64,000 bases of DNA from a virus. Its lineage: Duplodnaviria > Caudoviricetes. The stretch lies in the IMG/VR virus record IMGVR_UViG_3300037422_000298. The stretch is one strand, 5' to 3'. Every line of letters starts with the position of its first letter. Position 1 is the stretch's first letter. The translations under genes were made by a program, and so were the position numbers. Shown in pieces: positions 4,583 to 63,742 of this stretch. The notes beneath the pieces are model-generated. The model was not told the origin of the DNA, did no database searches, and was given only the letters and a program-made list of their open reading frames with translations.

Positions 4583-4628
4583 GATCGCGCCAGCGATCAT
4601 CTTGACGACGTGGATCGCTCATGGGATC
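4583..4628. promoter_or_regulatory. tandem GATC boxes between divergent genes
   Basis: GATCGCGCCAGCGATC (4583-4598) and GATCGCTCATGGGATC (4613-4628). Confidence 0.6.
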
Positions 4629-4692
4629 GTCTTTACGTCACACCCGATAGAAGGCCGTCGCCGACTTGAGGGACAACCCGCAACAAGAGGAA

Positions 4693-4896
4693 ATGATCAT
4701 GATCGCAGCAAACCTGGGTGACGGTCTCGGCCGTCGTCGTCGTCGCCGTCGCTCTCGCGGCATGGGCGCGCTCCCCACCCTCGTCGGCCGTCGCCGCCGG
4801 GGCAAGGGCAAGCGCCGCGGTCGCAAGATCTGCATCCGCACGGCCGCGGGCAACAAGGTCTGCGGCACCCGGTGGCGCCGCCGTCGCCGGAAGTAG
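4693..4896 (+). CDS. protamine-like Arg-rich small protein
   Basis: AAGAGGA RBS; several poly-Arg runs; followed by a terminator. Confidence 0.75.
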   Translation: MIMIAANLGDGLGRRRRRRRSRGMGALPTLVGRRRRGKGKRRGRKICIRTAAGNKVCGTRWRRRRRK

Positions 4897-4925
4897 GCCC
4901 AGCGTTCCGGCGCTAGCCTGAGAGA

Positions 4926-4960
4926 GGGCCGCGTGCGATACGTCGTACGCGGCCCTTTTT
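4926..4960 (+). terminator. rho-independent terminator
   Basis: GGGCCGCGTGCGA-TACG-TCGTACGCGGCCC followed by TTTTT. Confidence 0.85.
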
Positions 4961-4991
4961 CGTCGATCCACCTTCCCGCGCGGGAGATCTG

Positions 4992-5282
4992 ATGCCCACC
5001 AAGAAAGTGTCCGCAGCCGACCGGCGACACGCCGACTTCATGATCAAGACGCTCGCGCCTGATTTGAAGGCGAGCGGGCGCACGCACACCGCCAAGGATG
5101 TCGCACGCTGCGGGCGCCTCATGAAGTCGGGTGGCCGCGATCGCGGCTACGCCAACTGGCTCAAGCGCACGTTGATCCCAGATCTGCGGGCTTCGGGACA
5201 GAAGTACACCGCGAACGATCTCGCACGCTGCGCGCGTACGATCTCGAATCAGCGCAAGCGCCGGAAGCGAAGGGCGCGCTAA
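4992..5282 (+). CDS. basic protein with internal duplication and Arg tail
   Basis: KTLAPDLKASG..TAKDVARC / RTLIPDLRASG..TANDLARC; GGGAG RBS. Confidence 0.75.
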   Translation: MPTKKVSAADRRHADFMIKTLAPDLKASGRTHTAKDVARCGRLMKSGGRDRGYANWLKRTLIPDLRASGQKYTANDLARCARTISNQRKRRKRRAR

Positions 5283-5512
5283 TGTCGAAGCGCGTCGAGT
5301 TCGCTGACCTGCCTGTCGGCTCCTGCTTCGCGTACGACGCGAGCAGCAAGCACGCCACACGGCGCAAGGTCGACGAGCGCCACACCGTCGTGATCCCCGG
5401 CAGTAAGAAGCCGTTTCGCGTCGACGACGTCGAGACGCGTGTCTTCACGAAGGCCTGTCCCGTCAACTTCGGCCGTCGTCGCAAGCGGCGCCGCACCAAG
5501 AGGAGTCGCTAG
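5282..5512 (+). CDS. small protein with NFG-RRRKRRR tail
   Basis: TAATG coupling. Confidence 0.7.
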   Translation: MSKRVEFADLPVGSCFAYDASSKHATRRKVDERHTVVIPGSKKPFRVDDVETRVFTKACPVNFGRRRKRRRTKRSR

Positions 5513-5514
5513 TC

Positions 5515-5793
5515 ATGGCGAAGAGGAAACGGCGCAGGTCTCTGCGCGGCAGCGAAGATCGCTACGTCGTCAGTGGCCCCGCCACGTGGCGACGCAGCCT
5601 CCACGCGTCGAAGAGTGCAGCGATCGATCAGGCGAAGGCCTGCTCGAAGAAGCATCCCAACGCGGTCTGTAAGGTCACGCAGGGCCTACCCGGCCTGCAG
5701 CGCACCGTCGCCGAGTGCAACCGCAACGAGTGCTGGTCCGCTGATGGCGGCGTCGGCAAGCGTCGGCGTCGTCGGCGCAAGGCGAGGCGCTAG
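5515..5793 (+). CDS. Cys-containing small protein with Arg-rich ends
   Basis: operon spacing; both termini basic. Confidence 0.7.
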   Translation: MAKRKRRRSLRGSEDRYVVSGPATWRRSLHASKSAAIDQAKACSKKHPNAVCKVTQGLPGLQRTVAECNRNECWSADGGVGKRRRRRRKARR

Positions 5794-5795
5794 TC

Positions 5796-61276: not shown

Positions 61277-61302
61277 AGCCTACCACGATCGCGCGAGCGA
61301 TC
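61277..61302 (-). promoter_or_regulatory. GATC-box promoter
   Basis: GATCGCTCGCGCGATC-gtgg-TAGGCT on minus. Confidence 0.72.
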
Positions 61303-61344
61303 GCGCGCTTGTCCCGCTCCCGTGTATCGAAGTAACCTCGCCAG

Positions 61345-61641
61345 ATGGCGCGCAAATTCGACGAGACGGTCGTCAAGGTTCGAGACCGCATCCAACAGGG
61401 ACGCGTGGTTCTGACCGAGCGCATTCGCGCTGGGAAACGCCGCGCGATCTCCGTCGGTCCGTATCGAACCGCGACCGGCCCTCGTCAGTACGCGCTCTGC
61501 GTACTGCCCGCGTTGCCCGGCGAGAACGACTGTACGATGACACGCGGCGCGGACCGGACCGCGCGCGAGTTCGTTCGGCTCGTCGGCGTCGAAGAAGCGC
61601 AGGACGCGCTCGTTCGCGAGTCCCGCAAACGTCACGGCTAG
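61345..61641 (+). CDS. basic hypothetical protein
   Basis: TAACCT 6 nt before the ATG. Confidence 0.6.
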   Translation: MARKFDETVVKVRDRIQQGRVVLTERIRAGKRRAISVGPYRTATGPRQYALCVLPALPGENDCTMTRGADRTAREFVRLVGVEEAQDALVRESRKRHG

Positions 61642-61643
61642 CG

Positions 61644-62030
61644 ATGAACAGCGTCGCTGTCGTGATCGAGGATCGTGCGGGTCGCGTGTTGCTACTTCTG
61701 CGCGGCCCGACGGCACCGTGGATGCCGATGCGCTGGAACCTGCCCGGCGGCATGGTCGAGCGTGGCGAGACGGCAGTCGACGCCGCCGTTCGCGAGGTCC
61801 GCGAAGAAACCGCCCTGCGCGTGCAGGCCGTCAGACTTGTTCCGCTCGCGCGCGCCCGCGCGGCTCGTGGCGGTGTGCTCGACGTGTTCTATGCAACGCA
61901 ATGGACGGGCAACGTTCAGCTCGTCGATCGTGAGCACGTCAGCTTCGTGTGGGTGCCGCGCGCGACAGCGGGCGATTGGGATCTCGTACCGCCGCAGCGA
62001 GACGTGTTGCGCTGGTTCGCGCGACGTTAA
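61644..62030 (+). CDS. Nudix hydrolase
   Basis: PGGMVERGETAVDAAVREVREET Nudix box. Confidence 0.92.
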   Translation: MNSVAVVIEDRAGRVLLLLRGPTAPWMPMRWNLPGGMVERGETAVDAAVREVREETALRVQAVRLVPLARARAARGGVLDVFYATQWTGNVQLVDREHVSFVWVPRATAGDWDLVPPQRDVLRWFARR

Positions 62031-62107
62031 CGCTTTTTGTAGACGTAGCACGCGATCTCGATCGCGATCGCGATCGCGGCGAGACAGATTCCACCGGTCC
62101 ACGTCAA
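62027..62107 (-). CDS. 26-aa TM peptide with KKR tail
   Basis: GGAG RBS, TTG start: MTWTGGICLAAIAIAIEIACYVYKKR. Confidence 0.45.
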   Translation of the reverse strand: MTWTGGICLAAIAIAIEIACYVYKKR

Positions 62108-62382
62108 TTTTGTGCTCCGACTTGGAAACCGCCGCGGCGCAGCTCGCGTGCCCGCTGCGCACGGTGCTCTTGGCTCTGCTTCGTTTCTTCGGCGATCGGC
62201 TTACCGCGCTTCTTGCGCGGACCGAGCTTCTTTCCGTTCGCACGACGCCCTTCGATCGTACAGACGTCGCCATTGGCGACGATCCACGATGAGCTGATTC
62301 GCAGATTCTCCACGCGACGCGTGTATCACGCGCCTGCGTGGGGCTCAACCTCTTGAGGCTTGCATGCGGCTCCTCCTGTTCT

Positions 62383-62979
62383 TCATCGCGTACCGCTGTG
62401 CATCGCGTGTGTGCTCCAGTAGACGATCGCCTGAGCAAATTGCTCGGCGGTGTACTCGGCTTTCGTGCCACCCGGCAGCCCGAGGAAGTTTCGCGCCATC
62501 GCAACGGGTGTCATCGGCTCGGGCTCGTTCTGCGTTCGCGCGTTGATGCTGACGATCTGGTAATCGACGTCGTCGGGAACCTGTTCGCCTTCGGCGCGAA
62601 GCAAGTCGCGGCTGTACAAGATCACCTCGACCGCGACTGCAGGCGTTTTGCGACCGCCCGCGAGCACCTCGACAAACGCGGCTTCGCCGGGGCGCCGTGC
62701 GGCGAATCGCGCGACGAGCGGCGTCACGTCATTGATCACGGCGACACCGCTGTAGAACTGGGAGCCGCCGAACACCGTCGGCGGCATCTCGACGACAAGG
62801 ACGCCGTCCTTGTAGCCGGGCTTGACGTTCGCGTCGAGCTTCGACGGTTCCTCGACGCACTCCTCGACGTGCGTTTCAAGCACGCGCCAGTCAGCCGTGC
62901 GGCCGAGTTGATCGGCGAGGTAACTGAACGGCGATTCCTTGGTCTGGCGTTTCACAAACTCGTTGCACGTGATCTTCAT
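62383..62979 (-). CDS. DUF3228-like protein
   Basis: FVKRQ, PGY, ILYSR, IVSINA, EPMTP.AMARN.LG..GG. Confidence 0.65.
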   Translation of the reverse strand: MKITCNEFVKRQTKESPFSYLADQLGRTADWRVLETHVEECVEEPSKLDANVKPGYKDGVLVVEMPPTVFGGSQFYSGVAVINDVTPLVARFAARRPGEAAFVEVLAGGRKTPAVAVEVILYSRDLLRAEGEQVPDDVDYQIVSINARTQNEPEPMTPVAMARNFLGLPGGTKAEYTAEQFAQAIVYWSTHAMHSGTR

Positions 62980-62989
62980 CTGACTCTCC

Positions 62990-63331
62990 CTAGATTTCGT
63001 TGTTCATCTCGTCGAACGTGACGAGCCGTTGTTCGTAGGTCGCGCGCAGCAGTGCTTCCGGTGCAGCGGTCACCAGCCAGCCACCCGGCGTGGCGCGATG
63101 CTGCTCCAACCACTGCTCGTAGGTCATGGCTTCGAGGGCGCTGCGCGTATTGCGTTCGACGCACTCCCGTCGCGCCGCCTGGCGCGTAGCACCGACAAAC
63201 ACGACGGTGCCGGGGCAGTCGTAGCAGTCACGCTCGCAAGGTGCCTGCGCGCGGTCGAGCACGAACCATTCGCGCTCGTCGCCGTCCGACGGCTGCGGTT
63301 CGCCGGACTGAATGTGAAAGCGTTTCTTCAT
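62990..63331 (-). CDS. hypothetical protein
   Basis: AGGA RBS. Confidence 0.55.
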   Translation of the reverse strand: MKKRFHIQSGEPQPSDGDEREWFVLDRAQAPCERDCYDCPGTVVFVGATRQAARRECVERNTRSALEAMTYEQWLEQHRATPGGWLVTAAPEALLRATYEQRLVTFDEMNNEI

Positions 63332-63742
63332 CGGTTCTGTTTCCTAGACGCCGCGGGCGTCGACTTCTGACACTTCGTGTTCTTCATTCTTCAGGACGCA
63401 CGCACGACGTCAGATCGGACAGCGTGCGTGTATGGGCGCGACGACGGGATGCGCGAATCCCGAGCCCGGCGTTCTGCGTCCAGATCCGGTTCGTCGCGGG
63501 CGAGTCGTGGGCTTGTGGCAACGTGCTCACCTTGACAACAGACATGACGGGGAAACGGGGTCGGATCTGACAGCTCAAATGAAGAAAGTTTCGCGGTCCT
63601 TGCTGGTCCCGGCTAAGTCGTTGATTTTTCGAGGGATACTGCCGATTTCAGCAAGCAGACCTGCCCTCGATCGCTCGCGCGATCCGCGACCCGGCGGACG
63701 GGATCGCTCGAAATTTCGCTGCGTCCCTACCTATTTGCCAAT

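Follow-up and report, generated by a model that had tools for sequence, protein, structure and literature searches.

A GATC-bearing palindrome at promoters of a high-GC virus group: a candidate operator of a dimeric regulator

The 64,000-nucleotide (nt) stretch of virus DNA analysed here (Duplodnaviria; Caudoviricetes; IMG/VR record IMGVR_UViG_3300037422_000298), hereafter the window, carries in the gaps between its genes a 16-base-pair (bp) palindrome, GATCGC-N4-GCGATC, that is often followed within a few bp by the -10-like hexamer TAnnnT. What kind of signal is this box, and what reads it? An earlier reading made from the sequence alone (the sequence-only reading) had proposed a novel promoter class. 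What is observed is the motif itself, where it lies (between genes and linked to promoters), its use in both directions, its conservation and its restriction to one lineage; protein binding, the sign and timing of control and the identity of the binder are inferred. Our preferred explanation, to which we give a probability of about 45%, is that the box is the site of one dimeric, lineage-specific regulator overlaid on primary-sigma promoters and acting by negative control.

The palindrome and its place in the promoter

The exact 16-mer GATCGCGCGAGCGATC occurs seven times in the window compared with 0.01 expected, a count reached in none of 100 shuffles. All seven copies are intergenic and lie where the sequence-only reading had placed them (11041, 12163, 14884, 50292, 51016, 61287 and 63669). 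When any four bases are allowed at the centre, the count rises to 12 versus 0.06 expected, with 10 of the 12 intergenic. The two coding copies, at 33577 and 42847, sit in open reading frames (ORFs) that translate to IAIARAIV and AIADAIF, the codon mimicry of which that reading had warned; the variants (4583, 4613, 9708, 22097 and 22250) and degenerate copies (14906, 27244 and 27295) that it described are likewise present. Intergenic placement is defined by a crude gene map from a self-trained codon-usage model (112 genes, coding fraction 0.895) of the window, which has a GC content of 62%. The 61287 copy lies between a leaderless 119-amino-acid (aa) ORF starting at 61269(-) and an ORF at 61345-61641(+), and is intergenic.

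The exact 16-mer has no match in the searchable literature, and GenBank phages contain no near DNA match to the window. A scan of IMG/VR with the 16-mer gave 115 loci, with multi-copy matches on five contigs of ~70-75% DNA identity to the window: G001 (196 kilobases (kb), 44 boxes), G002 (IMGVR_UViG_3300024054_000362; 221 kb, complete, 36 boxes), G003 (91 kb, 20 boxes), G004 (79 kb, 10 boxes) and G005 (65 kb, 11 boxes). All five were analysed at full length, and two of them are 90-100% complete. Counts from here on cover the window and these five relatives unless a smaller set is named. Across them, 95 of 133 boxes are intergenic although ~0.9 of the sequence is coding, a tally that includes many orthologs and paralogous cassettes, so that the counts are not independent. 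The reversed sequences yield no box at 0-1 mismatch, and the spacing GATC-N8-GATC occurs 127 times in intergenic DNA compared with ~10 for adjacent spacings. By type of intergenic region, the box share is 45% for divergent, 16% for tandem and 12% for convergent gaps.

The symmetrised consensus of the box is cGATCGC-[G/T]-C-G-[A/C]-GCGATCg, or cGATCGC-KYRM-GCGATCg. GATC is the most invariant portion of each half-site; in variants, positions 5-6 drift and GATC stays. Genome-wide, GATC reaches 3x its base-composition expectation but matches the trinucleotide expectation. The centre is mostly asymmetric, with GCGA, GTGA and GCAA the most frequent forms and 33 intergenic copies of GCGA versus six of the perfect GCGC. 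The context of the box is lineage-specific: elsewhere in IMG/VR, only one of 87 copies of the 16-mer has TAnnnT at 3-5 bp, and that copy lies on a further relative.

The distance from the box to the -10 hexamer is strongly preferred. Of 178 intergenic flanks, 6 have a TAnnnT that begins 3 nt past the box, 21 have one at 4 nt and 18 at 5 nt (45/178), versus 1-2 per other offset, which bears out the fixed spacing that the sequence-only reading had offered as a check. Its seven window cases at offsets 3-5 (9708, 11041, 12163, 14884(-), 50292, 51016 and 61287(-); hexamers in Table 1) are all found. About half of the boxes have such a hexamer, on either side of the palindrome. Leaderless-type box promoters number 29 at 3-5 bp versus 18 at 1 and 6-27 bp, with almost none beyond 28 bp. 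Among 56 non-redundant box promoters, ~36 have ATG or GTG 5-9 nt past the hexamer, a geometry that suggests leaderless messenger RNAs. The box itself occupies about -17 to -32 relative to the predicted start.

A -35 hexamer is absent from most box promoters, and wherever one is present the spacer is 17-18 bp. Other recognition features take its place. At offset 4, 22 of 25 promoters carry TG at -15/-14 (an extended -10). At offset 5, 11 promoters have TT directly 5' of the box, which creates a TTGATC at a distance of exactly 17 bp to the -10; these lack TG, while 8 others have it. TT and TG occur together in none, and only 2 have neither. Altogether 44 of the 56 promoters have TG or TTGATC-N17, never the two together. 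Upstream of gene 9758, an alignment of five orthologous loci shows no change in the box, TGG, the T-A-T of the -10 or the Shine-Dalgarno (SD) sequence, although the intervening and flanking sequence drifts. The sequence-only reading was therefore right that the box marks a regulon at a preferred -10 distance, with an extended TG and usually no -35.

Judged by sequence, on which all the promoter evidence rests, the core promoter is an ordinary primary-sigma -10/extended -10: TAnnnT near the start, with either TG or TTGATC as a -35 at ~17 bp. An E. coli-type promoter scan did not detect the box promoters. When candidate leaderless promoters are chosen independently of the box, only 34 of 142 carry it at up to 3 mismatches, and box-less examples exist (gtgTAGAAT-N6-ATG at 44963); the box therefore appears to be an addition to some of the promoters only, which would form a regulon. 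Calling it a novel promoter class went too far, since the core is standard, box-less versions exist and a palindrome in the -35's stead is known from phage P1 (PMC10695390).

The palindrome serves either side. Two single copies have -10 hexamers on both flanks (G001 69062 and G003 52756), and many promoters read leftwards from the box. The asymmetric centre does not correlate with promoter direction (~13:12) or, in tandem gene pairs, with the sense strand (10:11). Because the palindrome works in both directions, its centre has no link to orientation and no sigma gene is found, the box looks like the site of a dimer rather than a sigma element.

Genes served by two promoter classes

Intergenic k-mer enrichment followed by alignment reveals a second promoter class, the canonical (a/g)CTCTTGAC(T/A)tgt-N17-TAgngT, referred to below as TTGAC. 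Its targets in the window are the SNF2 gene with a divergent operon (variant CTCTTGCTTTG), the AAA-ATPase operon (27265), a block of metabolic genes (33084, 46249), gene 18138(-) and a recombinase (54394). The box promoters lead into an Arg-tail cluster (4666-6753), 9758/10188, 11118, the operon 14816(-), ORF 14960, 12195 (a membrane span plus RRYRRR), 50325, 51048 (a membrane span plus an Arg tail) and 61269(-), as well as 12122(-), whose AYVESRF motif makes its product look lytic-transglycosylase-like. Ten box-driven gene products returned nothing in Pfam, PHROGs and NCBIfam scans. From their sequences, the products of the box regulon appear to be mostly Arg-tailed, membrane and small β-sandwich proteins of virion type, and the TTGAC class appears to drive enzyme genes. 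The targets are thus largely as the sequence-only reading had them: Arg-rich, membrane-anchored or structural-looking.

The 152-aa product of 14358-14816 is modelled by AlphaFold as a confident β-sandwich (predicted local distance difference test (pLDDT) 85.5), which makes a structural role plausible. Its structure matches are generic β-sandwiches only (best Z 5.1, Foldseek E >0.01) and do not support the name capsid protein. At least ten small proteins of the window end (one begins) in runs of 4-8 Arg/Lys, several of them beside a membrane span; their genes lie at 4666-6753, 10188-10532, 12195-12884, 15050-15217, 51048-51530 and 60910-61269, and possible roles are those of DNA-condensing or membrane-tethered core proteins. 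Ten box promoters, at 11068-11117 and 14817-14872(-) in the window and at 8 sites in relatives, share a ~45-nt 5' leader (ACCTCgyycg ... CCCGG.yACGGCTAGGAGG). Its ACCTC could pair with the SD sequence GGAGG, and the leader may control translation of what would be the most strongly expressed small β-sandwich genes.

Table 1. Positions in the window of the boxes, their promoters and the methyltransferase gene
Feature	Position	Strand	Context
Dam-family N6-adenine DNA methyltransferase gene	2567..3544	+	Assigned from NCBIfam and structure relatives
Box pair, 4583-4598 and 4613-4628	4583..4628	.	TTGACG in between; arrangement conserved in G001 and G002; divergent region, genes 3812-4600(-) versus Arg-rich gene cluster from 4666(+)
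Box variant, centre GTGC	9708..9723	+	gTGg, TACGTT 9728-9733, SD AAGGAG, GTG 9758
Exact box	11041..11056	+	TT directly 5' gives TTGATC (-35-like); -10 TAGGTT 11062-11067; conserved leader; gene start 11118
Exact box, divergent region	12163..12178	.	+ side: -10 TAGGCT 12183-12188, leaderless GTG 12195; - side: TAGGTT 12130-12135 at 27 nt distance, ATG 12122
Exact box	14884..14899	-	-10 TACCGT 14873-14878(-); conserved leader; operon from 14816(-), first product 152 aa, predicted β-sandwich
Degenerate second box CTTCCCGTGCGCGATC	14906..14921	+	TATGGA 5 nt on; ATG 14960 begins Arg-rich ORF
Two degenerate boxes, 22097-22112 and 22250-22265	22097..22265	.	Inside 420-bp non-coding hub
Canonical TTGACA promoter (27267-27272) of AAA-ATPase operon	27244..27310	+	Spacer filled by box-like AGTCGCTGGAGCGATC; degenerate boxes 27244 and 27295; arrangement kept in G001, G002 and G005
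Exact box	50292..50307	+	-10 TATTCT 50311-50316; leaderless-type ATG 50325, 8 nt past -10
Exact box	51016..51031	+	gTGg then TACCGT 51036-51041; leaderless ATG 51048, membrane protein with Arg tail
Exact box	61287..61302	-	gTGg then TAGGCT 61277-61282(-); leaderless ATG 61269(-), 119-aa Arg-rich membrane protein
Exact box, divergent intergenic region	63669..63684	.	Neither side with a -10 at 3-5 bp

The hub around 22097..22265 has divergent CTCTTGCTTTG-type promoters on both flanks and TTCACGTGAA repeats inside. These tandem TTCACGTGAA-type palindromes (22140-22175), next to the two degenerate boxes, could represent another operator or else an origin.

Repressor, activator or other signal

How could a palindrome control so many promoters? 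In the explanation we prefer, a dimeric sequence-specific regulator would bind the box over the -35/spacer region, and host primary-sigma polymerase would read TAnnnT together with either the extended TG or the TTGATC -35-like hexamer. The ~40 box promoters per genome would form one regulon that times mostly virion-type genes. The regulator would be made from an early TTGAC promoter, occupy the box and block the polymerase, and relief would come later, for example through titration on replicated genomes or changed GATC methylation. Negative control is slightly favoured over activation because the promoters carry recognition features of their own (TG or TTGATC), the spacings vary, boxes are paired and boxes lie in and around TTGAC promoters. 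Pairs occur at 4583/4613 and 14884/14906 and at several places in the relatives. Boxes abut or bracket TTGAC promoters at G002 66972/67035 and G001 100700, and a box-like AGTCGC....GCGATC occupies the 17-bp spacer of the AAA-operon TTGACA promoter in four genomes.

A known counterpart is the immunity repressor of cluster A mycobacteriophages (L5, TipsytheTRex), which binds its operators and stoperators, asymmetric 13-mers, as a monomer in an orientation that follows transcription (PMC9283540). The likeness lies in more than 20 copies of a short site in promoters and short gaps, with one phage regulator blocking host polymerase (PMC9283540). In contrast, the box is a palindrome, is promoter-linked, shows no orientation bias (10 sense:11 antisense) and comes with no evidence of lysogeny.

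Which protein might bind? No sigma, helix-turn-helix (HTH) or other DNA-binding family was found among 104 window proteins, although very divergent sigma factors could escape such a scan. Among 159 conserved small proteins of G002, a scan for DNA binders gave three. HTH_17-A, excisionase/AlpA-like and ~67 aa (67-79) long, has a TTGAC promoter and occurs in G001-G005; a contig of 241,025 bp, the length of the window's own contig, encodes a homolog with 71% identity, labelled 'AlpA' by the Joint Genome Institute (JGI). HTH_17-B, of ~66 aa, has a box-type promoter of its own, TTGATCGCGnnnGCGACT-N5-TACGTT, conserved in three genomes. The third is a GerE/NarL-type HTH protein with a Cys/His-rich N-terminus, found in G001, G002 and G007. 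Two further genomes separate these candidates from the box. G008, a more distant relative (126 kb), keeps it as GATCG[CGT]G[TC][GA]C[GAC]CGATCc, followed after 5-6 nt by TAnnnT; G007 (IMGVR_UViG_3300019487_000004; 138 kb, with direct terminal repeats) lacks it. None of the three tracks the box cleanly: the GerE-type protein and HTH_17-A are absent from G008, and HTH_17-B has a longer homolog in box-less G007. The G002 proteins that are shared with box-bearing G001 and G008 and absent from G007 are a thioredoxin-like protein, an AAA operon and two proteins without an assigned family, with no DNA binder among them. A host-encoded binder is possible.

Several observations weigh against repression by such a regulator. 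In G008, which has boxes, homologs of HTH_17-A, HTH_17-B and the GerE-type protein all went undetected. In G007, ~13 leaderless promoters carry, where the box would be, the oriented element TGTCA(G/T)CCCC-N6-TAnnnN (TGTCAGCCCC-N6-TAnnnN), whose geometry is that of the -26 element of the activator PafBC (PMC8635444). The tight spacing of 3-5 bp is kept in 60% of linked promoters, which suits an activator touching the polymerase. The TG/TTGATC evidence is partly non-independent, as the sites are often orthologs or paralogous cassettes. The genes served look late; in well-studied phages control of such genes is positive without exception (PMC10695390), and by analogy activation would be expected. 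A classical immunity repressor, moreover, is unlikely because a search for prophage relatives found no prophage copy or lysogeny module.

A reasonable possibility, if short of an even chance, is that the box is instead the site of a late-promoter activator: a dimeric virus or host protein centred at about -24.5 that replaces the -35 contact and recruits host polymerase. The lack of a -35 at most box promoters and the spacing peak at 3-5 bp fit such a protein, as does the division of labour between virion-type genes downstream of boxes and enzyme genes on canonical TTGAC promoters, and HTH_17-A provides a small HTH protein driven by an early promoter. A precedent is phage P1, in which 11 late promoters share the Lpa-binding site, an inverted repeat of 9 bp (PMC10695390). 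Both systems combine a -10 with an inverted repeat in the -35's place at many dispersed promoters, in P1 those of morphogenesis-type genes; they differ in that the box is a 16-18 bp palindrome rather than 9 bp, is present at ~40 sites per genome and often serves either direction from one site. The P1 repeat is reportedly positioned near -22. T4 MotA/AsiA work in a similar way. What speaks against an activator is that the TG/TTGATC compensation suggests self-sufficient promoters, that some spacings measure 1 or 6-27 bp, and that a good TTGACA promoter has a box within its 17-bp spacer. Pfam scans of window and G002 core proteins gave no Lpa-like family, although no dedicated search for one was made.

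Mycobacterial PafBC offers a second model of activation. In this 'sigma adaptation' the activator stands in for -35 recognition, and its -26 element is read jointly with primary-sigma holoenzyme through the motif tGTCgg(N10)tA(N3)T (PMC8635444). Box promoters share the missing -35 and an element directly upstream of TAnnnT, and the exact spacing of this element recurs in the TGTCAGCCCC-N6-TAnnnN promoters of G007. The window box, however, spans -17 to -32 as a symmetric 16-mer, in contrast to the asymmetric tGTCgg at -23 to -28. Intergenic matches to tGTCgg-N10-tAnnnT number 0 in the window and 9 in G007, with 4 further TGTCAT variants there. No WYL activator was matched in the virus genomes G001, G002, G006, G007 and G008, although a host copy is possible. 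A MerR-type promoter would have a palindrome in a 19-20 bp spacer and a MerR regulator; the spacers here are 17-18 bp, and the MerR_1 scan of relatives gave one sub-threshold match only. As the HTH_17 proteins and MerR share a broad clan, there may be a distant link to MerR. WhiB had no match in the scanned relatives. Loading of a Q-type/AlpA antiterminator uses an element between -35 and -10 and a regulator with a C-terminal HTH; the AlpA element is a 6-bp asymmetric sequence of a single promoter, and it requires both a sigma-dependent pause and a terminator further downstream (PMC9371919). HTH_17-A, at 67-79 aa, is too short for the eight-helix AlpA, and ~40 palindromic sites with leaderless starts misfit this mechanism. 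Of the dimeric activator or phage sigma factor that the sequence-only reading had in mind, the dimer agrees with the symmetry of the box, and the sigma factor is not supported, given the lack of Sigma70_r2 matches in five relatives and the two-way use; a repressor fits at least as well as an activator.

It is unlikely, though worth considering, that the box is a methylation-gated switch, in which the virus Dam would methylate both GATCs and the binder or the polymerase would tell un-, hemi- and fully methylated sites apart. Each box holds two GATCs, conserved even in variants, and a Dam homolog is indeed encoded, as the sequence-only reading had noted. The product of 2567-3544 scores 181 bits against the NCBIfam 'dam' model, above the cut-off of 115, and among solved structures its best matches are GATC enzymes (DpnM, E. 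coli Dam and T4 Dam); the gene is conserved in G002, G007 and G008. Dam control of a phage late operon is reportedly known from Mu mom, through OxyR. The Dam gene, however, is also kept in box-less G007, whose promoters have no GATC element; GATC is abundant throughout these genomes, and the specificity of the enzyme is predicted from its relatives only. Methylation would also be an addition to a repressor or activator model rather than an alternative binder. The fullest version of the idea, a dimeric reader from virus or host that binds ~40 promoters in one Dam state only, so that replication of the genome would itself flip the virion-gene regulon on, is a long shot.

A virus sigma factor or virus RNA polymerase with the box as its upstream element would make a truly new promoter class. 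The position of the box over the -35/spacer, its lineage specificity and the many virus proteins without a recognisable family would allow this. The box, however, is palindromic and used in both directions without orientation bias, the -10 and extended TG are primary-sigma-like and common to box-less and TTGAC promoters, and no Sigma70_r2 match was found in G001-G005; such a class is very improbable. Just as improbable is a signal outside transcription initiation, whether an RNA hairpin or terminator, a mobile repeat, or a packaging, partition or condensation site: the common centres GCGA, GTGA and GCAA are GNRA tetraloops and 45 of 89 boxes lack a -10 at 3-5 bp, but the fixed link to the -10 would be left unexplained. 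An RNA hairpin is rejected, as tandem pairs show no strand bias of the centre (10:11) and 39 of 89 boxes lie in divergent regions, with no upstream transcript ending there. No box has a T-run or a terminator call, and the strand-specific hairpin plus T-run at gene ends that marks an intrinsic terminator is not found; the flanks of copies are unrelated, contrary to a mobile cassette.

Lineage, host and meaning

Leaderless starts, TAnnnT and the PafBC-like element of G007 hint at an actinobacterial-type host. The G007 element further hints at use of a host DNA-damage activator; G007 itself has no WYL match. As another faint actinobacterial link, HTH_17-B (66 aa; G001 18288-18485 and orthologs) aligns with positions 1-51 of the NCBIfam model of mycobacterial RNase AS (E 6e-13). 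The search for a host through prophage relatives gave one weak Thalassospira match only.

The window also encodes intein-bearing proteins, an SNF2 helicase, a PEP-utilizer-domain protein, a CoaBC-like protein and an XerC/D-like recombinase. Inteins with LAGLIDADG homing-endonuclease domains lie in two genes, for a GP88-family protein (6756-9206) and an AAA ATPase (27345-29474). A transfer RNA (tRNA) gene, tRNA-Ile(GAT), lies within 48474-48626, and 9 nt on stands a tRNA-like gene to which ARAGORN assigns a four-base anticodon (gatg). In G002, a 36-nt repeat (about GTCGCGATCGACAACGATCACGACGCGGATAGAAAC) is present 35 times or more within 2900-6300, at distances of 72-76 bp, which resembles a virus-borne array of clustered regularly interspaced short palindromic repeats (CRISPR).

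The box is a known kind of phage switch in a new instance, in an undescribed virus group, and not a new promoter class; one regulator word that recurs at dozens of phage promoters is familiar from P1 Lpa, the L5 stoperators (PMC9283540) and T4 MotA. For this group of high-GC viruses of 65-241 kb, most of whose genes have no known relatives, it provides a regulatory map of two promoter classes and one regulon word. It can be used for sorting genes into expression classes, for a DNA-affinity search for the regulator and for recognising relatives. Unless methylation is truly involved, the mechanism would be one more version of familiar phage circuits; if the methylation reading is true, these giant viruses would have a replication-coupled timer of late genes built into the architecture of their promoters.

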